Shown: positions 2,870 to 25,308, counted from the first letter of the stretch. The stretch: 27,930 nt of DNA from an uncultured Acidobacteriota bacterium (GCA_937888665.1 CALBET010000175.1:1-27930); one strand, 5' to 3'. Notes: generated from the sequence alone by a model not told the origin. Translations and numbers: made by a program.

Positions 2870-4816
2870 TTACGGGGTCAGTGCCCCGGTCACGGACGCG
2901 ATCAGTCCCGCGATATCGAGCTGGTGGTACGCCAGCACCTCTTCGTTCGTGCCGCAAACCGGCAGTTCGCGGACACCGATCGCGGTCACCGGAACCGAGA
3001 GCCCGAGCTGGGCAATTCGGCTGGCGAGCATCTGGCCTTGCCCGCCATCGACGTAGTGGTTGTCGAGCGTGAAGACCCGCTGCGCATCGGCGACCGCCTC
3101 CTGGAGCCAGGCAGCGTCGACACGATTCAGCCATGGCATGTCGATGACGCGCGCATGCACCCCGTGCTCAGCCTCGAGGCGCTCGGCCGCATGGTACGCG
3201 TTGCTCAGCAGCCACGGTCCGGCGCCGATGAGCACGACGACGTTGTCGGAGCCGCCGGGCCGCACCACCGTGCCGACACCGAGTTCGAGCGCGTAGTCGG
3301 CCGGCAGGGTGAACGGTACCGGCCAGCCGAGCGACACCAGCCGGATGTAGCTGCTTTGGGTCGTCTGCTCAAGACAGAACGACAGCGTGGCCGCCGATTC
3401 GGCTTCGGTGCAGGGCTCGATGAGAATCAGATTCGGGATCGCAGCCAACGCCGAAATATCGCGGACCGCCTGGTGCGAATGCCCAGGGCCACCGGGCAGC
3501 AGCCCTGCCAGCGAGCCGACATAGATGACCTTCGTCCCCTCGCTGGCGTTGTTGTAGATCTGCTCGTTCGGCCGCGCCGAGAGGAAGCAGGCGAACGAAT
3601 GGGCTATCGGCACCAGCCCCTGACGCGCCATCGCCCCCGCCTGCGACACCATGTCTTGCTCGGCGATTCCGCATTCGATGAAGCGGTCGGGGAACTGGTC
3701 CCGAAACTCAAGCAAGCCACAGTCCTTGACCAGGTCGGCGTCGAGCGCGACGATAGCGGGGTTGCGCCGAGCGTGCTCGACAAGCGCGGTGCCATACGCG
3801 TTGACGAGACGCTCGACCTCCAGCACCGGTTTGCGGGGTGGTCGGCGGGCGGTCTCGAGCACCAGGTCGCCCAGACCCGCCTCGCGCAGGCGGTCGCGAG
3901 CGGCGGCGATCAACTCGGCCGCCCCTTTGGCGTACGCCTCCTCGTTGGGCGCGCCGCTATGGAAAAGATACAGCGAGTCCGCCGCGAGCGCCGCGGGCCC
4001 CTCCATGAACGAGACGCCCTTGCCCTTGACCGTGTCGGCGATGAGCACTTTCGGCACGCCGGGACTCGCGTTGAGCTGTGCGAGGGCAGCGTCGAGCGCC
4101 GCGAAGTCGTGACCGTCGCAGCGTGCGACCCGCCAGCCAAAGCTGGCGAACTTCGCCTCGAGATCGCCAAGAGGACCCACGTCTTCCACCCACGTGTCGG
4201 ACTGAATCTTGTTGTGGTCGACGATGACGGTGATCTCGTCGAGCCCCAATGCGACCGCCGATCCGAGCGACTCCCAGATCTGCCCTTCCTGCAACTCGCC
4301 GTCACCAGTCAGCACGAAGATCTGACGACGCTGACCGCGGAGCCGATTGGCTATCGCCATCCCCTTCGCTTTCGAGATCCCCATGCCGAGCGATCCGGTG
4401 TTCGCCTGGATGAAGGGCGTCTCGACGTGAGGATGCCCGGCCAGACCGTCCACCCGGCGCAGAGCGTGCAACAACTCGAAGTCGAGCAGCCCGAGCCCGG
4501 TCAGCACGGCGTAGAGCGCCGGGGCGTCGTGTCCCTTCGACGAGAAGAAGAGGTCGCACCGATCGTCGCCCTGGTCCACCCCCTGCATCTTCTGCAAGAA
4601 GAGCCAGGTCATGATATCGGTCGCGCTGAAGCAGGTGCCCGGATGCCCCGACCAGGCCCTGGCGATCGTGTAGAGGACGTTGATACGCGTGTAGGCCGCG
4701 AACACCGCGGCACGCGGCTGCGGGTCCAGGTGACGCTCGAGGAGCGACTCGAATGCCCTCCGCGGTACGTAGAACAGCTCGTCGGATTCGACCTGTTCGA
4801 GCTGCGATTCACCCAT
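2870..4816 (-). CDS. Single-chain ThDP-dependent transketolase-like enzyme (N- and C-terminal domains fused) with an atypical acceptor site
   Basis: SGHPG, SKGH, GHP, GSLGMG, ThDP motif GDGELQEG...DHN, TVKGKG, GIAEQ, SHQ; GGAGG Shine-Dalgarno upstream of the ATG. Confidence 0.9.
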   Translation of the reverse strand: MGESQLEQVESDELFYVPRRAFESLLERHLDPQPRAAVFAAYTRINVLYTIARAWSGHPGTCFSATDIMTWLFLQKMQGVDQGDDRCDLFFSSKGHDAPALYAVLTGLGLLDFELLHALRRVDGLAGHPHVETPFIQANTGSLGMGISKAKGMAIANRLRGQRRQIFVLTGDGELQEGQIWESLGSAVALGLDEITVIVDHNKIQSDTWVEDVGPLGDLEAKFASFGWRVARCDGHDFAALDAALAQLNASPGVPKVLIADTVKGKGVSFMEGPAALAADSLYLFHSGAPNEEAYAKGAAELIAAARDRLREAGLGDLVLETARRPPRKPVLEVERLVNAYGTALVEHARRNPAIVALDADLVKDCGLLEFRDQFPDRFIECGIAEQDMVSQAGAMARQGLVPIAHSFACFLSARPNEQIYNNASEGTKVIYVGSLAGLLPGGPGHSHQAVRDISALAAIPNLILIEPCTEAESAATLSFCLEQTTQSSYIRLVSLGWPVPFTLPADYALELGVGTVVRPGGSDNVVVLIGAGPWLLSNAYHAAERLEAEHGVHARVIDMPWLNRVDAAWLQEAVADAQRVFTLDNHYVDGGQGQMLASRIAQLGLSVPVTAIGVRELPVCGTNEEVLAYHQLDIAGLIASVTGALTP

Positions 4817-4822
4817 CTCGAT

Positions 4823-5578
4823 TCATCCTCCAAAGGCCGCCCGGTTCACAGGCGGCAGCGTCCAGTCCCCGCTGGCGACCAGCTCTTCGGCGAGCCGCCA
4901 ATCCCATGTGTCGTTGATGTCGAACCCCTCACGTTCGTCCGTCCTGAACGGCACGAGCGTGTGACCGGCGATGGTGCGCCCCTCGAGTGCCACCCGACTC
5001 CAGGCGATCTCCAGGCTCGCGTTCTGCACCCAGACCTCGGGCAGCGACGGCATCTGGCTGCTGTGCCACGGCTGCTCAGCCGGACCGAACGGGAGCAACG
5101 GCAGCAACCGGTCGCCCCGGATGACCCACATCTTCCCGGGGTGCTGACGCACCCGCTCCACGGCCCGGAGCGAATCGACGCCGTCCGCGCCCCGAAACAC
5201 GGACCAGGCCCGACGGATGGTGTCGGCGGTCCGGAACGGGCTGGTCGGTCTGAGAATAGCGAAGCAGTCAAAGGTTCTATCGGCGTCCCGCAGCGCGCCA
5301 AGCCCGTGCTCGACCCACTCGATGTCAGGTGACCGCGCCCCGGCTATCGTCGCCGGTCTACGGAACGGCACCTCGGCGCCGTAGTGTCGCGCGACCTCGG
5401 CGGTCGCTTCGTCATTTGTCGACACCACGACCGCCCCGAACACCCCGGAATCGCGCGCGCCCGCGATCGTGTACGCGATGAGCGGATGACCACCCAGCAC
5501 GCGGATGTTCTTGCCGGGCACTCGAATCGACCCACTGCGGGCCGGAATGAACGCGACACAGGACGGCTCGGTGGTCAT
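4823..5578 (-). CDS. neuA: Acylneuraminate/nonulosonate cytidylyltransferase (NeuA/CMAS family)
   Basis: IPARSGSIRVPGKNI, VVVSTND, LRPTSPFR, QNASL, FDIND. Start moved to the ATG at 5578 (MTTEPSC) because the longer ORF-track start lies inside a MITE. Confidence 0.88.
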   Translation of the reverse strand: MTTEPSCVAFIPARSGSIRVPGKNIRVLGGHPLIAYTIAGARDSGVFGAVVVSTNDEATAEVARHYGAEVPFRRPATIAGARSPDIEWVEHGLGALRDADRTFDCFAILRPTSPFRTADTIRRAWSVFRGADGVDSLRAVERVRQHPGKMWVIRGDRLLPLLPFGPAEQPWHSSQMPSLPEVWVQNASLEIAWSRVALEGRTIAGHTLVPFRTDEREGFDINDTWDWRLAEELVASGDWTLPPVNRAAFGG

Positions 5579-5598
5579 CGACGGCACGGCGCAGTAGT

Positions 5599-5756
5599 GC
5601 GTATCACAATGACGGTGACCTATTCGGTCGCCGAGGCGCCGAATCACCGGGCGCGAGGAGGGAGCCTACGGGAAGTCGACGCGTCGTCACAACGCCCAAC
5701 GCCGCGACGGGCGGGACGGCTCGGTGATCGAAAGCGGCGCCGTCATTGTGACACGC
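5599..5756. mobile_element. MITE-like element C (about 158 bp)
   Basis: Terminal inverted repeats GCGTATCACAATGACGG (5599-5615) and CCGTCATTGTGACACGC (5740-5756) match 16/17, with TA 2 nt outside each end; inner imperfect IR; contains the shared core start GGGCGCGAGGAGGGAGC (5649-5665). Confidence 0.7.
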
Positions 5757-5761
5757 GGTAC

Positions 5762-7237
5762 TCAGACGGCCCCCGGGTCGGCATGGATGTAAATCGTCTT
5801 CCAGTCGGAGTAGACGTCGAGCGCTTCGGTGCCAGCCTCGCGCCACCCGGTGCCCGACTGCCGTAGCCCCCCGAACGGCATGTGCGGCTCGCTGCCGTAG
5901 GTGCCCCCGTTGATGGACGCCACGCCCGACTTGATGCGGCTGAGGAAGGTCATCGCACGGTCGACGTTCGCGGTGTGGATGGCGGCGGTGAGCCCGAACG
6001 GTGAGGCGTTGGCCAGACTGATCGCCTCGTCGAAGTCGGCCACGCGGTACAGACAGGCGATCGGCCCGAACAACTCCGCCTGGGAAATCTCAGCCTCCGC
6101 GGCGGCGCCCTCGAGCAGCGTGGGTGTCATGTAGAACCCGTCGCGGTGCGCATCGTCCGTCATCCGTCCGCCACCGACCAACACCGTCGCGCCGGCGGCC
6201 CGTGCCCGGTCGACCGCCGAGACCATGTTGTCGAGCTGCCGCTGATTGATGACCGGACCTAGGTCGTCATCGTCGGCCGGGCCAAGCGTGAGGCTCCGCG
6301 TGTACTCCAACAACTGTTCCTTGAATCGGTCGTAGACCTGGTCGAACACGATCAGTCGGCTGCCGGATGCACATCGTTGCCCCGCGTTGCTGAACGCGGA
6401 CAGACCGGCAATCGTGACGGCTCGATCGAGATTTGCGTCGTCGCAGACGATAAGTGGGTTCTTGCCACCGAGCTCCAGGCAGACCTTGGCCAGACGCGCG
6501 CCGGCGGTCGCCTGAATCTGCCGACCCACGCCGCACGACCCGGTGAAGCTGATCAGGTCGACACCCGGGTGCTCCACCAGCGGCGCTCCCGCCTCGGGCC
6601 CGTATCCCTGGACGACATTGAACACCCCGGGCGGAATGCCGACGTCGTCGAACACCTTCGCCGCGGCCCACGCGGTGGCGGGTGTATCCTCCGACGCCTT
6701 CATCACCGCGGTGTTCCCGCAGAGCAGCGCCGGGTACGCCTTCCAGGCCACGTTCGCGATCGGCGTGTTGGCGGCGATGATCAGACCGGCGACCCCCAGC
6801 GGCTGCCTGACGATCAGGGCCGTCCGGTGCGGCACCGCGCTGGTCGTCGTCTTGCCATAAAACCGACGCCCCTCCCCGGCGACGAACAGCCCCATCTCGA
6901 CTGCTGCGCCCGTCTCGCCGCGAGCGTCCTGTCGGGACTTGCCCGTTTCGAGCGAGACGATCTCCGCAAACTGGTCGCTCCGCTCGCGCATCAGCAACGC
7001 CGCCTCGCGGAGCAGATCGCCGCGAGCGACCGGGGTCATCCCGGCCCAGTCCGGCTGCGCGCGTTGCGCTGCCGCAACCGCTGACTCCACATCGGCCGCG
7101 CCGGAGCGAGCGACGGTGCACAACTCGGCTCCGGTCGCCGGATTCAGATTCGGTAGCGTCTGCCCATCCTTCGCGGCATGCTCTCTACCGTCGATCCAGT
7201 TCGGTATCTGCGGCGGTATCAACGACGTTGGGTGCAT
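5762..7237 (-). CDS. NAD(P)-dependent aldehyde dehydrogenase
   Basis: FTGS, LELGGKNP (catalytic Glu), NAGQRCASG (catalytic Cys), ELFGP, PFGGLRQSG; AAAGGA SD upstream. Confidence 0.93.
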   Translation of the reverse strand: MHPTSLIPPQIPNWIDGREHAAKDGQTLPNLNPATGAELCTVARSGAADVESAVAAAQRAQPDWAGMTPVARGDLLREAALLMRERSDQFAEIVSLETGKSRQDARGETGAAVEMGLFVAGEGRRFYGKTTTSAVPHRTALIVRQPLGVAGLIIAANTPIANVAWKAYPALLCGNTAVMKASEDTPATAWAAAKVFDDVGIPPGVFNVVQGYGPEAGAPLVEHPGVDLISFTGSCGVGRQIQATAGARLAKVCLELGGKNPLIVCDDANLDRAVTIAGLSAFSNAGQRCASGSRLIVFDQVYDRFKEQLLEYTRSLTLGPADDDDLGPVINQRQLDNMVSAVDRARAAGATVLVGGGRMTDDAHRDGFYMTPTLLEGAAAEAEISQAELFGPIACLYRVADFDEAISLANASPFGLTAAIHTANVDRAMTFLSRIKSGVASINGGTYGSEPHMPFGGLRQSGTGWREAGTEALDVYSDWKTIYIHADPGAV

Positions 7238-7425: not shown

Positions 7426-8262
7426 CTACCAGGCGGTGAAGCCGCCGTCGACCCGCAACTCCGTACCGGTGACGTACGTCGACGCGTCGGACGCGAGAAA
7501 GCGGAGCGGGCCCGTCAGGTCGCTGGCCTCCGCCATGCGACCCAGCGGCACTCGATCGTTGAACTTGCGCTGGAACTCCGGGTCCTGGCCACCCAGCACG
7601 CCTCCGGGGGACAATGTGTTGACCCGGACACCATACGGTCCCCACGCCGTCGCCAGATACCGGGTCAAGTTCACCACCGCTGCCTTCGAGGCGCCGTAGG
7701 CCGGTGGCTTCAAGAACGGCGGGTCCAGGTTCATATGAGCGTAGAGGCGGAGGTCCGGCGACACGCTGGCGTAGAGCGACCCGATGTTGATGATCGAGCC
7801 ACGTCGCGCTTTGACCATCTCGGCCCCGAATACCTGGGACACCTGGAACATCCCCAGGGTGTTGACCTCGAGAATCGCACGACTGGCGTCCAGTGGGACA
7901 TCTTCCATCCGATGGTATGTCGCGCCATCCGTGGAGGCCGGCTGGTCGATGCCGGCATTGTTCACCAGCACCGAAGCCACACCCATGAGTTCGGCGCTGG
8001 CCGCCTGGGCCGCCACAAGCGAGGCCCGATCCATCACATCGGCGCGATGCAGGCGGAGTCGCGGTGCGCCGGTCGAATGGATCGACTGCGCATACCGATC
8101 GAGCAACGACTGCAGGCCCGGGCTCACCGGCGCCCGCTCCAGGTCGAGCGCGAATACCCGCGCGCCGGCATCCAGGAGCGCACCCACCCAGATCGGTCCT
8201 AGCCGGCCGGACGCGCCGGTCACCACGGCGACCGTATCATCGAGACGAAACTGGTCTTTCAT
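7426..8262 (-). CDS. Classical short-chain dehydrogenase/reductase
   Basis: VVTGASGRLG, VNNAG, catalytic YGASK, VRVNTLSPGG, LRVDGG. Start moved to the ATG at 8262 (MKDQFRLDD); the longer ORF-track N-terminus is read from a repeat. Confidence 0.92.
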   Translation of the reverse strand: MKDQFRLDDTVAVVTGASGRLGPIWVGALLDAGARVFALDLERAPVSPGLQSLLDRYAQSIHSTGAPRLRLHRADVMDRASLVAAQAASAELMGVASVLVNNAGIDQPASTDGATYHRMEDVPLDASRAILEVNTLGMFQVSQVFGAEMVKARRGSIINIGSLYASVSPDLRLYAHMNLDPPFLKPPAYGASKAAVVNLTRYLATAWGPYGVRVNTLSPGGVLGGQDPEFQRKFNDRVPLGRMAEASDLTGPLRFLASDASTYVTGTELRVDGGFTAW

Positions 8263-8264
8263 TA

Positions 8265-8475
8265 GACGGGGCTGCGCCCCGAACCCCCGCGGGCCCTTCG
8301 CGGGGACCCCGCAACGCCCCACGCCGGACCCGCGAGGCGCGCACGTGCGCGCCTTGCCCTGACGGGGCTACGCGTCCATTCTTTGACGGGGTTACGCCCC
8401 GAACCCCACGCGACGGCTACGCGGGGACCCCGAGTGCCCCACTCCGCCGCCGCGGGGCGCGCATTGTCGCGCGCC
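8265..8475. repeat. Two REP-like multi-hairpin direct repeats of about 90 bp with a 120-bp period
   Basis: Copy 1 (8265-8353) begins GACGGGGCTGCGCCCCGAACCCC; copy 2 (8385-8475) begins GACGGGGTTACGCCCCGAACCCC. Both contain CGCGGGGACCCCG and end in a GGCGCGC/GCGCGCC hairpin. A partial third start GACGGGGCTACGC lies at 8361. Confidence 0.8.
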
Positions 8476-8497
8476 GTGGCCGGACACGATGCACTAT

Positions 8498-8655
8498 CAG
8501 TCCTTGGTGAAATTCCCGCGTTGCACGGAGACCGACGCTGGTTCGGTCGAGCAAGGCGAGAAGAGGGAAAATACCGGCAATATTTGACCGGTGAACAACG
8601 CGGATCGGCCGGATTCAGCGACGGTCGAATGCAGCGGGACTTTTGCCACGGGCTG
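8498..8655. mobile_element. MITE-like element B (158 bp)
   Basis: Imperfect TIRs CAGTCCTTGGTGAAATTCCCGC and GCGGGACTTTTGCCACGGGCTG (17/22), TA one base outside each end, nested inner IR (8531-8550 vs 8605-8625), and the shared core at 8554-8589. Confidence 0.72.
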
Positions 8656-8660
8656 CTAGC

Positions 8661-9722
8661 CTACTGGCCGGCCAACTCGAGTTGGTCAAGCGAGAGGGGG
8701 TCGTCCACGGACAGCGCCACCTTTGTCACCGCCCCGATCACGCGTTGGATCTCGACCGGGGCAAGCCCGTCGCCCGGCGACTTGACCGCTATGTCATCCA
8801 CGGTCAGCGTCTGACCGGCCGGCACGTCGCGGGCCGCGACCAGCTTCTTGCCCATCTTCAGCACCGGCCCGGCCTCACTCGGAAAGACGACCTTCGTCCC
8901 GTCGCCCATGCTCCGTCGGGCTCGCTCGAGGTCGCGGGTCATCTTGCGCATGCCGACCGGTTCAAGCGAGAAGACGTTGTCGGTTCCCTTCATCGCCCGG
9001 TTCAGCGTGAAGTGCTTCTCGATGACCCGCGCGCCCAGCACATAGGACACGACCGGCATCGCAATGCCGTTGTCGTGCCCCGAGTAGCCAATCACGATGT
9101 CTGGGAATCGCTGACGATAGGTGTCGATGACCCGCAGGTTGAGCTCGTCGAACTCCACCGGATAGCCGCAGGTGCACTGCATGATGCAGAGTTGCGTGTT
9201 GATGGCCATCACCGTCTCGTAGGCGCGTTCGACGTCTTCCATGGTCCCGCCGCCGGTGCTCACGATGATCGGTTTCCCGAACGCGGCCACGTGCGCCAAC
9301 AGCGGTAGGTTCCGCAGGTCGCCCGAGGCGATCTTGTAGGCGGGCATGTCCAGCGCCTCGAGAAAGTCGGCACTGAGTACGTCGAACGCGGTGGCAAAGA
9401 AATCCAACCCCAGTTCGGCGGCATACGCCTTCAGTTCGACATACTCCTCGTTGCCGAATTCGAGCGCCTCGCGATGTTCGCCGTAGGTCGCGCCGAAACT
9501 GTTCTCGTTCTCGTACGGCTTGTCGAAGGCGGTCTGGGTAAAGAGGGTCCGATTGTCCCGCTTCTGCAGCTTCACCGCGCTCACCCCGCAGGACTGCGCC
9601 TGGCGGAACATCTCTTTCGCCGTCTCGAGGTTGCCTTGGTGGTTATGCCCGACCTCCGCAATGACGTAGGCAGGGTTGTCGTCGCTGACGACGTGCCCTC
9701 CCAGCTTCAATTCGCGTGACAT
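8661..9722 (-). CDS. neuB: NeuB-family nonulosonate synthase with C-terminal SAF/antifreeze-like domain; 9-phosphate (NANS/Kdn9P-synthase-like) type
   Basis: IAEVGHNHQG, VKLQK, TYGEH, YKIASGD, IVSTGG, IGYSGH, IEKHFTL, SLEP. GGAGGAGG SD supports the ATG at 9722 (MSRELK). Confidence 0.93.
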   Translation of the reverse strand: MSRELKLGGHVVSDDNPAYVIAEVGHNHQGNLETAKEMFRQAQSCGVSAVKLQKRDNRTLFTQTAFDKPYENENSFGATYGEHREALEFGNEEYVELKAYAAELGLDFFATAFDVLSADFLEALDMPAYKIASGDLRNLPLLAHVAAFGKPIIVSTGGGTMEDVERAYETVMAINTQLCIMQCTCGYPVEFDELNLRVIDTYRQRFPDIVIGYSGHDNGIAMPVVSYVLGARVIEKHFTLNRAMKGTDNVFSLEPVGMRKMTRDLERARRSMGDGTKVVFPSEAGPVLKMGKKLVAARDVPAGQTLTVDDIAVKSPGDGLAPVEIQRVIGAVTKVALSVDDPLSLDQLELAGQ

Positions 9723-9765
9723 CGTCCGGTCCTCCTCCACGAGGTAAATGAAGAACTGTGGGCGG

Positions 9766-10716
9766 CTAGCCGCGTATGCGGGACACCAGCGCGTCCCAGC
9801 CCAGTGCGCCGGATGCGGTCGCCCGCGCGCTGTCGGCGATCGACTGCAGTGTGTCCGGCTCCGTCGGTAGTGCCTCGCACCGGTGGATGTCGATCACGTT
9901 GTGCATGTGGTCGAAGACCCCGGGCGAGTGCTCGTCGAAATTGGTGAGCACCACCGACCCGCAGTCCATGGCGGCATTGACGGTGGTGTTGTTGGCCCGC
10001 ACCCCTTTGTCGAAGAAGGCGGCGAAGAACGTCGTGTCGATCAAATAGTTGTACACCGCCGTGTCAGACATGTACCCCAGAAAATAAATATGCTCGCCGT
10101 AGATCTCCCGCAACTCGTCGAAGACCACCGTGAACCGCTCATCAAACGCGGTGCCCTCATGCAACGCCGTGGAGAGATAGACGGAATACGGCCGGCCCGT
10201 CTGCTCCAGCAGCGCGTGCACCGTCCGGTGCAGCTCCGACCGCACCTTGTGCGCCATCCCGAACGCGAACACGGAGAGCCCCTCCAACCGGAAGCGCTGC
10301 GGCTCGAGCAAGGTCGATGGGCACCAGGAGTCCTGTACGTCTGGACGCTGCACCCGCAGCTCGGCGACGAGCTCGGCGTTGCCGCAATACACTGTCGCGG
10401 CCCGAGACAGCAGCGACCGCTCCACATCCGTGTCGGTCCACGCGTGCAGAAACAGACTGAACCCGCCACGCCACGACGCCGTGCCGAGCAATGACACCAG
10501 TGCGGCGCTGTCAGTGTCGGAAAACTCGGACTGCTTGAGCGATAGCACGGGATGCGCCATCAACGCGGCCCGGTCGTCGAACACGCTGAGCATCGGCACC
10601 TCCAGATGACGCGCAAGCAGCAGGTTGAACTTTGCCACTCCGCAGGTCAGGGGATTGAGGTGATATCCGAGCACGCCGTCGGCGCGCCCGGTTCCGACGG
10701 CGGGCTGCTCGCTCAC
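9766..10716 (-). CDS. Short, atypical GT-B-like protein (putative glycosyltransferase)
   Basis: CGVAKFN, AFGMAHK, YFLGYMSD and GVRANNTTVNAAMDCG resemble a GT4-like C-terminal domain. The GTG start at 10716 overlaps the upstream TGA (GTGA). Confidence 0.55.
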   Translation of the reverse strand: MSEQPAVGTGRADGVLGYHLNPLTCGVAKFNLLLARHLEVPMLSVFDDRAALMAHPVLSLKQSEFSDTDSAALVSLLGTASWRGGFSLFLHAWTDTDVERSLLSRAATVYCGNAELVAELRVQRPDVQDSWCPSTLLEPQRFRLEGLSVFAFGMAHKVRSELHRTVHALLEQTGRPYSVYLSTALHEGTAFDERFTVVFDELREIYGEHIYFLGYMSDTAVYNYLIDTTFFAAFFDKGVRANNTTVNAAMDCGSVVLTNFDEHSPGVFDHMHNVIDIHRCEALPTEPDTLQSIADSARATASGALGWDALVSRIRG

Positions 10717-20474: not shown

Positions 20475-21973
20475 GACGGGGCTCCGGCGGGCGGCGTCGC
20501 CGCGAGCGTGTCGAGCACCCACTGCCCGAGCCGTGCGCCGGCCTGGCCATCGGTAAACGCGCAGCACCGCCGCGCGAGCGCACGACGTCCCACACCATCC
20601 CTCGCCGGGTCGGCCAGATAGCGCGCCACAGCACGCACGAGATCGATGGCGCTCACGGCTACATGCGCCGCACCGGTCTCCACCACCGGCTGATAGTGTT
20701 CAAACTGGTAATACCGGGTGATGGAGAGTGGCAGCGGCAAGTCGGGCGTCTCGTCGAAACCGATATTTACAACCGGCGTGTCAAAGAGCGCCGCCTCTAC
20801 GGTCGTCGTGGAGGCAAAGTTCACGATCACGTCGCTGTGGGCTAGCGTCGCGGCCAGCCGACGTCGATCCTCGGTCCCTGGGGTGAACGAATCGAGCTCC
20901 GGCGACCCGTGGCTCCACTCAAGTTGCTGGAACGGCTTCTCGACGAAGACGTGTCGACCGTCGTGGAACCTCGAGTACAGGTCCACGTGGTCGCGCGGAT
21001 GCACGCGCACCAGGAGCTGGGCCTCGTTGCCAAATGCCCCCTCGTCGATCGCTCGCACGAGAATCTCGACCACCCGATCGGTGGTCGGATACACCAGCGC
21101 GGGGGCGGTGGCCAGTGTGACCAGTGGGCGAGCAGGGTCGGCGCCGACCGATGCACACAGCTCGGCTCTGGTCGGAATGGGCTCGCCACCGAAATAGGCG
21201 TCGAAGGGCAGCGCTCCGGTCACCCGGACGTGGTCAGCCCGGAAGCCGTGGTAGCGAACCGCTTCATCACGCATCGTCTCGTTCCAGACGGCCAGTTGGT
21301 CGACCGGCAGGACAGTGTGATATTTCGACGACAGATTGTCCCACCCGAGGTCGACACCCATCTGCGGCACGCCGAAGCGCTTGGCCGCATAAATCAGCGG
21401 TACCTCGATCGGGAGAAAGCCGGCGGTTGCGGTCACGAGCAGATCAGGCCGATGGGTCTGGAACAGCGTCCGATAGCCGGACACGTCGGTGATCCGCTGT
21501 GCCACCCGAAACCAGCCGCGTCGGGACACCGGCAGCCGACACACCGCCGCCTTGAGCGCGATGAGGGCGCCACGCCCCCGCCATTTCTCCATCAACCGCG
21601 CGCGGTCACGCTGGATCCGGACCGCCCGCAAGCGGGACTCAAGGAGAAACCGTTCGCTCAGAATCGAATCGACCACCCGTGCGCCGAGGCTGGGTGGCGG
21701 CGCGAACATCGGGACACAACGCACATCCTGTCGCTCAAGCTCCGACACCAGCTGGGGATCCGAAGCGAACGGAGACAACACCACGATCCGAGGTCGCGGT
21801 TGCGCGTCGAGCAACGCTCGCAGAAACGACCCGCGCGTGAGGTCCGCCACGTGGTGGCCGGCCGGCACGGAGAGGAACATCGTCCGCCACGGCGCCGCGT
21901 CCAAACTGACCGGCGGCGACGGGTGACCTAGGGCGGGAGCGGCGCGGACGACCAAGGTGGGCGCCGCGCTCAC
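20471..21973 (-). CDS. GT-B-like protein ('WDNL/HP' type), paralog 3 (more divergent)
   Basis: GWDNLSSK, VWNETM, TGALPFDAYF, LLVRVHP, NFASTTTVEAALFDTPVVN. The GTG at 21973 overlaps the upstream TGA. Confidence 0.65.
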   Translation of the reverse strand: MSAAPTLVVRAAPALGHPSPPVSLDAAPWRTMFLSVPAGHHVADLTRGSFLRALLDAQPRPRIVVLSPFASDPQLVSELERQDVRCVPMFAPPPSLGARVVDSILSERFLLESRLRAVRIQRDRARLMEKWRGRGALIALKAAVCRLPVSRRGWFRVAQRITDVSGYRTLFQTHRPDLLVTATAGFLPIEVPLIYAAKRFGVPQMGVDLGWDNLSSKYHTVLPVDQLAVWNETMRDEAVRYHGFRADHVRVTGALPFDAYFGGEPIPTRAELCASVGADPARPLVTLATAPALVYPTTDRVVEILVRAIDEGAFGNEAQLLVRVHPRDHVDLYSRFHDGRHVFVEKPFQQLEWSHGSPELDSFTPGTEDRRRLAATLAHSDVIVNFASTTTVEAALFDTPVVNIGFDETPDLPLPLSITRYYQFEHYQPVVETGAAHVAVSAIDLVRAVARYLADPARDGVGRRALARRCCAFTDGQAGARLGQWVLDTLAATPPAGAPS

Positions 21974-22473
21974 GCTGGCGAGCCCTCGTGCGCCTCCACC
22001 AGCAAGTCGCACACCTCACGCACCGCGCCCAGCCCGCCTGACCGCTCAGTTACGTAGCGCGCCACGACCAGGGCGGCCGGATACGCGTCAGCCACGCAGA
22101 TGGAGACCCCCACATTGCGCAGACAGTCCACGTCGTTGATGTCGTTGCCGACGTAGGCGACCTGGTCAGTTGCGAGGTCGCGGTCCGCGAGAATCTGGCG
22201 GAGCGCAGCCCACTTGGTGTCGCCCAGCCCCTGGACACACTCGATGCCCAGCTTCGCGGCCCTGGCCGAAACCACCGGATTCGTCTCCGTGGACAGCACG
22301 AGCGAGCCGAGGCCTAGACGACGCAACGCCTGGAGGCCCAGTCCGTCAGCACGCGAGCAGAACACCGCCTCTTTGCCGTCTTGATCGACCAGCACGCGGT
22401 TATCGGTGAAGACCCCGTCGAAGTCGAACACCACGAACGTGACGGGCCTGAGATGTTCAGCGGTGAGTCGCAT
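21970..22473 (-). CDS. KdsC/YrbI-family HAD phosphatase, probably nonulosonate-9-phosphate (Kdn9P-type) phosphatase
   Basis: FDFDGVFTD, ADGLG, STETNPVVSARAAKLGI (Glu and Lys 11 residues apart), YVGNDINDV, GGLGAVREVCD. Confidence 0.88.
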   Translation of the reverse strand: MRLTAEHLRPVTFVVFDFDGVFTDNRVLVDQDGKEAVFCSRADGLGLQALRRLGLGSLVLSTETNPVVSARAAKLGIECVQGLGDTKWAALRQILADRDLATDQVAYVGNDINDVDCLRNVGVSICVADAYPAALVVARYVTERSGGLGAVREVCDLLVEAHEGSPA

Positions 22474-24321: not shown

Positions 24322-25308
24322 CTAGTACACGGACACGGGAGCCCGGCCGGACTGGTGCCGCTCGAGGTCAGCGTCGACCATCATCGTGACGAGTCTCGTG
24401 AAGTCGACGTTCGGCTGCCAGCCAAGCTGTGCCCGCGCCCTGGATGAGTCGCCGATCAGATGGTCGACCTCGGCCGGGCGCAGGAATTTGGGGTCGGTCT
24501 TGACGTGCTCCTGCCAGTCCAATCCGACATGGTCGAACGCCGTCTGCACCAGTTCCTGGACCGAGTGACTGACACCGGTCGCGATCACGTAGTCGCTGGG
24601 CGTCTCCTGTTGCAGCATCAACCACATCGCGCGCACGTAGTCCCCCGCGAAGCCCCAGTCGCGGTGCGCGTCCAAATTGCCCAAAGACAGACTCTTCGCG
24701 AGACCGAGCTTGATCCGGGCTACCCCATCTGTGACCTTGCGGGTCACGAATTCAAGACCGCGCCGGGGCGATTCGTGGTTAAACAGGATACCGGACGCCG
24801 CAAAGAGATCGTAGCTCTCGCGGTAGTTTACGGTGATGTAGTGCGCGAACACCTTCGAGACGCCGTACGGGCTACGCGGATAGAACGGCGTGTCCTCGCT
24901 TTGTGGGGTCTCCCGCACCTTGCCGTACATCTCACTCGATGACGCCTGGTACAACCGAATCGACGTGTCGACACGACGGATGGCCTCGAGCACCCGGGTC
25001 ACCCCTTGGGCATTGAACTCGCCGGTCAGCAGCGGCTGATCCCAGGACGCCGGCACGAACGACATGGCCGCCAGGTTGTAGAACTCGTGCGGACGCACCT
25101 CGTCGACGACTGTCATCAACGACAGCTGATCGAGCAGATCGGCCGGTCGCAGCTCGATCCGTCCCAGCAGATGCTCGATGCGCCCGGTGTTCGGCGCGCT
25201 CAGACGACGAGTGACCCCGACAACCTCATACCCCTTGTCGAGCAACAACTCAGCGAGATAAGAACCGTCTTGCCCGGTAATCCCGGTAATGATTGCGCGT
25301 TTAGACAT
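24322..25308 (-). CDS. gmd: GDP-mannose 4,6-dehydratase
   Basis: [67 protein letters not shown]. Confidence 0.96.

Follow-up and report, generated by a model that had tools for sequence, protein, structure and literature searches.

The window analysed here is a stretch of 27,930 nucleotides from an uncultured Acidobacteriota bacterium. Its GC content is about 65%, and nearly all long genes lie on the minus strand. The features described below are collected in Table 1. The 353-residue product of the neuB-family gene is identical to a database entry (P0002) and matches the Pfam NeuB family with 255 bits (E 6.5e-76) and the SAF domain at its carboxy terminus with 43 bits, scores that put the assignment far above chance. 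The closest solved structure is N. meningitidis NeuB (E 1e-44), and an alignment of the two proteins shows that the residues binding metal and PEP (Lys/Gln, Ser, His, and Asp) are retained. The protein is a member of the NeuB family (PF03102) with an SAF/AFP-like domain and intact metal and PEP ligands. The coding sequence starts with an ATG at position 9722 that has the Shine-Dalgarno sequence GGAGGAGGA before it, and the open frame extends upstream to a GTG at 9740; the ATG is the likely start.

Table 1. Positions of the synthase gene, its motifs, and other features of the window
Feature	Position (nt)	Strand	Remarks
neuB-family synthase, coding sequence	8661–9722	minus	353 aa plus stop; NeuB TIM-barrel and SAF/AFP-like domain; Thr79, Asp135, Lys289, Ser315
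Motif 1, IAEVGHNHQGNLETAK	9615–9662	minus	residues 21–36
Middle motif, KPYENENSFGATYGEH	9474–9521	minus	residues 68–83; beta2-alpha2 loop; taken as diagnostic
Motif 3, FPDIVIGYSGHDNGIA	9060–9107	minus	residues 206–221
Non-coding stretch	8323–8660		338 bp between neuB and the SDR ORF; typical spacing elsewhere 10–60 bp
Classical SDR	7426–8322	minus	directly downstream of neuB; nearest relatives are sugar-acid dehydrogenases (mannonate oxidoreductase, gluconate 5-DH, KduD)
Aldehyde dehydrogenase (ALDH)	5762–7237	minus	nearest relatives are 2,5-dioxovalerate / alpha-ketoglutarate-semialdehyde dehydrogenases
CMP-ulosonate cytidylyltransferase-like (CTP_transf_3)	4823–5647	minus	117 bits with the PseF model, cut-off 206
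Transketolase-like ThDP enzyme	2870–4816	minus	catalytic residues kept, sugar-phosphate-binding residues replaced; His at the human Gln428 position, as in the yeast and E. coli enzymes
KdsC-family (HAD C0) phosphatase	21970–22473	minus	Glu63/Arg71/Lys74
GDP-mannose 4,6-dehydratase	24322–25308		15 kb from neuB

The gene set around the synthase

A scan of species-representative genomes gave 80 related loci with synthases 62–89% identical, and gene neighbourhoods were compared in these loci and in plasmid records only. The related loci are spread over Acidobacteriota, Desulfobacterota, Chloroflexota, Alpha- and Gammaproteobacteria, Gemmatimonadales, Gaiellaceae, Nitrospirae, Methylomirabilis, and others, and one of them (L072) belongs to the cultured Tistlia consotensis USBA 355. 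Fifty of the 80 are long loci, each of more than 15 kb. An SDR homologue adjoins neuB in 42 of these 50, an ALDH homologue and a cytidylyltransferase homologue are each present in 39, and a transketolase-like homologue is present in 37. The gene order neuB-SDR-ALDH-cytidylyltransferase-transketolase is nearly invariant, and the same order is found in Acidobacteriota, Desulfobacterota, Chloroflexota, Alpha- and Gammaproteobacteria, Gemmatimonadales, and Gaiellaceae. A literature search found no published description of this cassette.

The transketolase-like enzyme was aligned to human TKT (4KXU). The ThDP and catalytic residues are kept, and five positions differ: R318V, S345D, H416L, D424P, and R474S. 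The human residues Arg318, Ser345, His416, Asp424, and Arg474 are the ones that bind the sugar phosphate. A transketolase that has lost its phosphate-binding residues fits an action after dephosphorylation.

In two variants the ALDH gene is replaced by one for a class-III aminotransferase, and the HAD phosphatases are of other types. The first, on a linear plasmid of Streptomyces sp. NBC_01237 (L009, 11476–22330), has the order neuB-SDR-transketolase-RmlD-like-HAD_2-aminotransferase. The second, on a plasmid of Methylomagnum ishizawai (L096, 3086–9531), consists of a cytidylyltransferase-like gene, a split transketolase, the aminotransferase, an SDR, neuB, and a HAD-IIIA gene. The Streptomyces set adjoins hydroxyphenylglycine-synthesis-like genes and has a 2347-residue ORF upstream; this cassette may feed a natural product, not a surface polymer.

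Other arrangements were also observed. A reduced form in one Vicinamibacterales/Acidobacteriota group has neuB-SDR with glycosyltransferase genes and no ALDH, cytidylyltransferase, or transketolase gene within 10 kb (L022–L025, L028–L030, L033, L040, and L054), and a reduced form in one group of Chloroflexota has neuB-ALDH-cytidylyltransferase-transketolase without the SDR (L045, L060, L067, L073, L075, L078, and L083). In L035, L037, L065, L072, L077, and L080, which are alphaproteobacterial, Gaiellaceae, and other loci, the gene next upstream of neuB, at about 8800–9990, encodes a GDP-mannose 4,6-dehydratase. One protein (P0184) is a fusion of HAD_2, cytidylyltransferase, and NeuB.

Family placement and substrate-site residues of the synthase

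The synthase scores below the NCBIfam equivalog cut-offs for both TIGR03569 (NeuB_NnaB; 285.1 bits, cut-off 399.65) and TIGR03586 (PseI; 225.1 bits, cut-off 340.25). A HMMER search against all 1.84 billion cluster representatives returned 17,649 homologues. Among the best 150 are cricket, mosquito, aphid, pseudoscorpion, and clam proteins annotated at NCBI as sialic acid synthase or NANS. The classical references were E. coli K1 neuB, one neuB-neuC pair, two synthases within legB/legC/neuC operons, and three PGAP-named pseI. Trees were calculated with FastTree (155 rows) and with IQ-TREE under the LG+C20 PMSF mixture model (84 rows), and their topologies agree. The query and all cassette-linked homologues form a single clade (support 99), the animal enzymes form a clade of their own (support 92–94), and the classical NeuB, LegI, and PseI enzymes form a third, nested group (support 97–99). 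The preliminary description had proposed a phylogeny with LegI and PseI as the check on its assignment, and the synthase falls outside the classical enzymes, split from them with support 99 in both trees. The PseI references form their own clade within the classical group. We did not detect clustering with the LegI references in the trees; these were assigned by gene context, not by assay. Nesting of the synthase inside the eukaryotic NANS clade was not found either, and this split also has support 99 with FastTree and IQ-TREE. A short, weak branch (support 86) has the query and animal clades together on one side, so they may be sister groups if the root falls among the classical enzymes. The synthase is about 37.5% identical to the insect enzymes compared to 32–35% for the classical ones.

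Two other matches were discarded. The third NeuB match in the genome (C679) is a DAHP synthase. An Alistipes plasmid match (H51), considered as a stand-in for the Bacteroides BT1713/BT1714 pair, is a classical cytidylyltransferase-NeuB-NeuC set.

Three peptides of the synthase had been likened to segments of human NANS, and all three are exact matches in the synthase frame on the minus strand. Named arthropod and mollusc synthases contain nearly identical strings, such as RPYTGQHSWGKTYGEH in the cricket. The mean number of positions, out of 16, that motifs 1, 2, and 3 have in common with the named animal synthases is 11.0, 10.6, and 9.6, respectively, in a comparison set of insect, arachnid, and mollusc enzymes. 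The corresponding values for classical NeuB, LegI, and PseI are 8.1, 2.1, and 6.2. By these alignments the middle motif is the only one of diagnostic value. Motifs 1 and 3 were rejected as animal-type marks; they are largely family-wide and weakly diagnostic. A YGEH-like motif is present in 51 of 95 rows of the query clade, 14 of 18 of the animal clade, and none of the 14 classical rows. The idea that the diagnostic loop is longer than its classical counterpart was ruled out, as both have about 37 residues and differ in sequence alone.

The residues of the substrate site were examined in the same alignments. Eukaryotic NanS is distinguished from bacterial NeuB by the E134D substitution and the loss of Arg314 (PMC8208679), and Arg314, which binds the N-acetyl carbonyl, is missing from the mammalian enzyme (PMC11339185). 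The window's synthase has neither classical mark: Asp135 aligns at the Glu134 position and Ser315 at the Arg314 position. Arg is found at the 314 column in 9 of 14 classical rows versus 1 of 95 query-clade rows. The middle motif is the beta2-alpha2 loop. In the N. meningitidis enzyme this loop touches the C6-OH of ManNAc (PMC11339185), the place where a 6-phosphate would sit. According to PMC8208679, which cites Cotton 2014, a preference for ManNAc-6-P comes from the alpha2-beta2 loop in the human enzyme. Thr79 and Lys289 of the synthase align with the human Thr80 and Lys290 columns. These two human residues reportedly help to hold the substrate phosphate, a finding attributed to Cotton et al. 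2014. The Thr80 column is Thr in 90 of 95 query-clade rows and 18 of 18 animal-clade rows and Ser in the classical enzymes; the Lys290 column is Lys in 84 of 95 and 17 of 18 rows, respectively, and Val or Leu in the classical enzymes. Judged by alignment, the synthase carries the animal-type NANS residue set, which comprises Thr80, Lys290, the beta2-alpha2 loop, E134D, and the loss of Arg314.

These animal-like marks are also common in members outside the query and animal clades and occur in most non-classical members, so they define "non-classical" more than "animal". They are present as well in P0210, a fusion of cytidylyltransferase, NeuB, and a UDP-GlcNAc 2-epimerase domain, and in view of this wide distribution they may not be specific for phosphate sugars. 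P0210 groups with P0189, a clam protein that combines cytidylyltransferase and NeuB. The description of the synthase as animal-type therefore holds in part. Its residue marks are animal-like, and by score, tree, and residues it is not classical, but the trees put it by descent in a large bacterial clade distinct from the animal one (support 99). The alignments and trees together place it on a separate bacterial branch that bears the sequence marks of the animal, sugar-phosphate-using type. The query clade extends over Acidobacteriota, Chloroflexota, Desulfobacterota, Proteobacteria, Gemmatimonadota, Actinomycetota, and others, and the database name "N-acetylneuraminate synthase" is probably wrong for all of it.

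Precursor genes and the KdsC-family phosphatase

The genome is a MAG of 6.0 Mb in 1243 contigs and is 83% complete. Profile searches confirmed the absence of neuC, leg, and pse precursor genes from the window. The search for neuC in the rest of the genome, which had also been suggested, returned a sole Epimerase_2 protein that is a non-hydrolysing, WecB-type enzyme in an unrelated context. Neither the window nor the available 83% of the genome nor the cassette loci yielded a hydrolysing epimerase, a ManNAc kinase, or NanE. A NeuC homologue is absent from 75 of the 80 related loci. The remaining five each have a second, classical NeuB, and the confinement of NeuC to these loci serves well as an internal control. 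HAD phosphatases have been recruited to the cassette repeatedly, amino-sugar genes never.

The five loci with NeuC have a classical NeuB-NeuC-cytidylyltransferase set directly upstream of the cassette (L021:440–4251, L049, L067:2689–6527, L075, and L078:3083–7654). Two nonulosonate pathways adjoin in these loci, with one activating enzyme each.

The phosphatase gene of the window is 12 kb from neuB and is the sole KdsC-family gene found in the genome. Its best solved relative is the uncharacterised 3MMZ (132 bits), compared to 84–91 bits for true KdsC and 59 bits for BT1713, and it scores 81.6 bits with the NCBIfam KDN-9-P phosphatase equivalog NF058599, below the cut-off of 180. Residues 10–156 match residues 3–149 of 3E81 (BT1713) with an offset of 7. 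Since the two spans are of equal length the alignment was taken as gapless, and on this assumption Glu63, Arg71, and Lys74 correspond to Glu56, Arg64, and Lys67 of BT1713. This BT1713 triad is said to mark Kdn-9-P phosphatases, a proposal credited to Lu et al. 2009. In the same comparison, true KdsC structures carry Arg where the phosphatase has the Glu, and Ser, Ala, or Glu where it has the Lys. The Glu/Arg/Lys triad is present in all 19 of the cassette-linked phosphatase homologues. In 11 loci the phosphatase gene is inserted between neuB and the SDR gene, in another 4 it immediately precedes neuB, and a homologue is found within 10 kb in 14 of the 50 long loci. The location beside neuB in 15 related loci, together with the triad, suggests that the product of the synthase is likely to carry a terminal phosphate and that the phosphatase likely acts on this product. 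KdsA is also present in the genome, and the one KdsC-family gene could therefore have its role in making Kdo.

Proposed pathway, alternatives, and known systems

The best explanation of these data is that the synthase is a PEP:aldose condensing enzyme that uses a non-aminated aldose phosphate and carries out the first step of the cassette, with its product modified further. We give this reading a probability of about 0.6. It rests on comparison: homology, clade placement, the residue pattern, the absence of precursor genes, and the conservation of the cassette with its phosphatase linkage. From these we infer that the substrate is phosphorylated, which sugar it is, in what order the later steps proceed, and what is finally made. 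The combination of a non-classical synthase, animal-type marks, no amino-sugar precursor genes, and a cluster phosphatase makes a sugar phosphate the best reading of the substrate. The NeuB-family enzyme would condense PEP with a common non-aminated aldose phosphate, as the animal and Bacteroides 9-phosphate synthases do, and yield a 3-deoxy-2-ulosonate with a terminal phosphate. The simplest candidate substrate is D-mannose 6-phosphate, which would give Kdn-9-P; this choice is a guess. The KdsC-family phosphatase of the cluster would then strip the phosphate from the ulosonate, the SDR would oxidise the free ulosonate to a keto form, and the phosphate-blind transketolase would act on the keto form to give an aldehyde. 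The ALDH would oxidise the aldehyde, which would be aminated instead in the aminotransferase variants, and the final acid would be CMP-activated and moved onto a surface polymer. Against the proposed use of an aldose phosphate, 36 of the 50 long loci have no homologue of this phosphatase within 10 kb and 2 of 5 other cassette genomes have no match to it. The query clade is also not nested in the animal clade, and its identity to the insect enzymes is only slightly above that to the classical ones.

The same absences would be expected if the synthase used an unphosphorylated aldose, perhaps one built beforehand by the transketolase, SDR, and ALDH, and the phosphatase were a housekeeping KdsC. 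The presence of KdsA with one KdsC-family gene in the genome and the predicted inability of the transketolase to hold sugar phosphates agree with this alternative. It is nevertheless rather unlikely: the phosphatase is in the operon at 15 loci and has an invariant non-KdsC triad, the variants recruit unrelated HAD types, Thr and Lys occupy the human Thr80 and Lys290 positions, and the product of an ALDH is an acid, not an aldose.

Another possibility is a plain Kdn route, in which synthase, phosphatase, and cytidylyltransferase give CMP-Kdn and the SDR, ALDH, and transketolase serve another sugar of the polymer. All three core enzymes of the Bacteroides/animal route are present, precursor genes are not needed, and the phosphatase triad fits the marks of Kdn-9-P phosphatases. 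The arrangement of the genes is difficult to reconcile with this route. The SDR and ALDH genes stand between neuB and the cytidylyltransferase gene and the transketolase gene follows right after, an order that is constant across phyla, and neuB, SDR, and transketolase are also together in Streptomyces and Methylomagnum. The placement of the SDR, ALDH, and transketolase before and around the cytidylyltransferase suggests that the first product is processed further. The conserved order, the transketolase without phosphate-holding residues, and the aminotransferase variants make plain Kdn unlikely as an end product, and the expectation that Kdn is the simple end product was not borne out, with neuB fixed beside the SDR, the ALDH, and a phosphate-blind transketolase. 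The synthase is the first enzyme of a widely conserved gene set, and this set probably makes a modified acidic surface sugar.

A more specific version of the proposed pathway, which we regard as tentative, involves chain shortening. The synthase would form Kdn-9-P or a similar 9-phosphate acid, the SDR would oxidise C8 of the dephosphorylated acid to give a terminal ketol, the transketolase would clip off C8-C9, and oxidation of the stump by the ALDH would lead to a CMP-activated seven-carbon dicarboxylic ulosaric acid; the aminotransferase variants would make a terminal-amino acid. Viewed from its C9 end, 8-keto-Kdn has the D-threo configuration needed by transketolase donors, according to our own stereochemical reasoning. 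A different role for the transketolase-like enzyme would be to add a two-carbon branch to the keto form made by the SDR with no shortening of the chain. There is precedent in the addition of two-carbon branches to 4-keto sugars by ThDP enzymes, which was proposed for the branched octoses of paulomycin (PMC4802897, PMC4753412). Branch addition yields no aldehyde, however, and would leave the conserved ALDH without a substrate, whereas the variants with a class-III aminotransferase instead of the ALDH are the main argument that the intermediate is an aldehyde, and they favour chain shortening. Branch addition is quite improbable. Least probable is a true NANS-like Neu5Ac-9-P synthase acting on ManNAc-6-P. 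The shared animal marks agree with it, but searches of the window, the 83%-complete genome, and the cassette loci found no hydrolysing epimerase, ManNAc kinase, or NanE, and NeuC, where present, pairs with a second classical NeuB.

The proposed pathway resembles known systems in part. The Kdn pathway of Bacteroides thetaiotaomicron, reported by Wang et al. (2008) and Lu et al. (2009), consists of the Kdn-9-P synthase BT1714, the Kdn-9-P phosphatase BT1713, and a CMP-Kdn synthetase. The likeness extends to a NeuB-family synthase without amino-sugar precursors, a KdsC-family phosphatase with Glu, Arg, and Lys at the BT1713 positions, and a cytidylyltransferase. In contrast, the window's phosphatase falls below the NF058599 cut-off and is much closer to 3MMZ, and SDR, ALDH, and transketolase-like genes are fixed in the window's cassette. 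With animal NANS, which works with NANP and CMAS, the synthase has in common Asp at Glu134, no Arg314, Thr and Lys at Thr80 and Lys290, and a PYxxxNS(F/W)GxTYGEH loop; it differs in its separate clade (99), the weak common branch (86), the identity of about 37.5%, and the lack of a GNE-type supply of ManNAc-6-P. Classical NeuB, LegI, and PseI have the same fold and PEP-condensing chemistry, but the synthase has sub-cut-off scores with their models, lies outside their clade, lacks Glu134 and Arg314, and has no NeuC, Leg, or Pse partners. In the Shewanella Kdo8N pathway, the tail of a finished ulosonic acid is oxidised to an aldehyde by the alcohol dehydrogenase KdnB and then converted by the aminotransferase KdnA. 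The aminotransferase variants L009 and L096 follow the logic of this tail editing. The cassette differs from the Shewanella system in having a transketolase-like enzyme, and its common variant ends with an ALDH instead of an aminotransferase.

The phosphorylated route is already known from animals and Bacteroides, and a NANS-like enzyme in bacteria was suggested earlier (PMC5811610, discussed in PMC8208679). If the query clade uses a common sugar phosphate, the phosphorylated route to nonulosonic acids would be widespread in environmental bacteria, with a bearing on the origin of the animal enzyme, and surveys of "sialic acid" capacity based on NeuB matches would need correction. Through the cassette, known envelope chemistry would gain a new acidic sugar as well as a transketolase acting on unphosphorylated sugar acids. 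If chain shortening is true, its product would belong to a new class of surface sugar in bacteria, and transketolase would have a new function.

The genome has a second NeuB paralogue at the end of another contig (C63; L001:1–1683, minus strand). It is at least 561 residues long and runs past the contig end, so its C-terminal extension is long. The TYGEH loop is missing from it, the Lys290 column has a classical-like Val, and the gene adjoins its own PseF-like cytidylyltransferase gene (L001:1702–2415, minus strand). The genome probably makes two different ulosonic acids.
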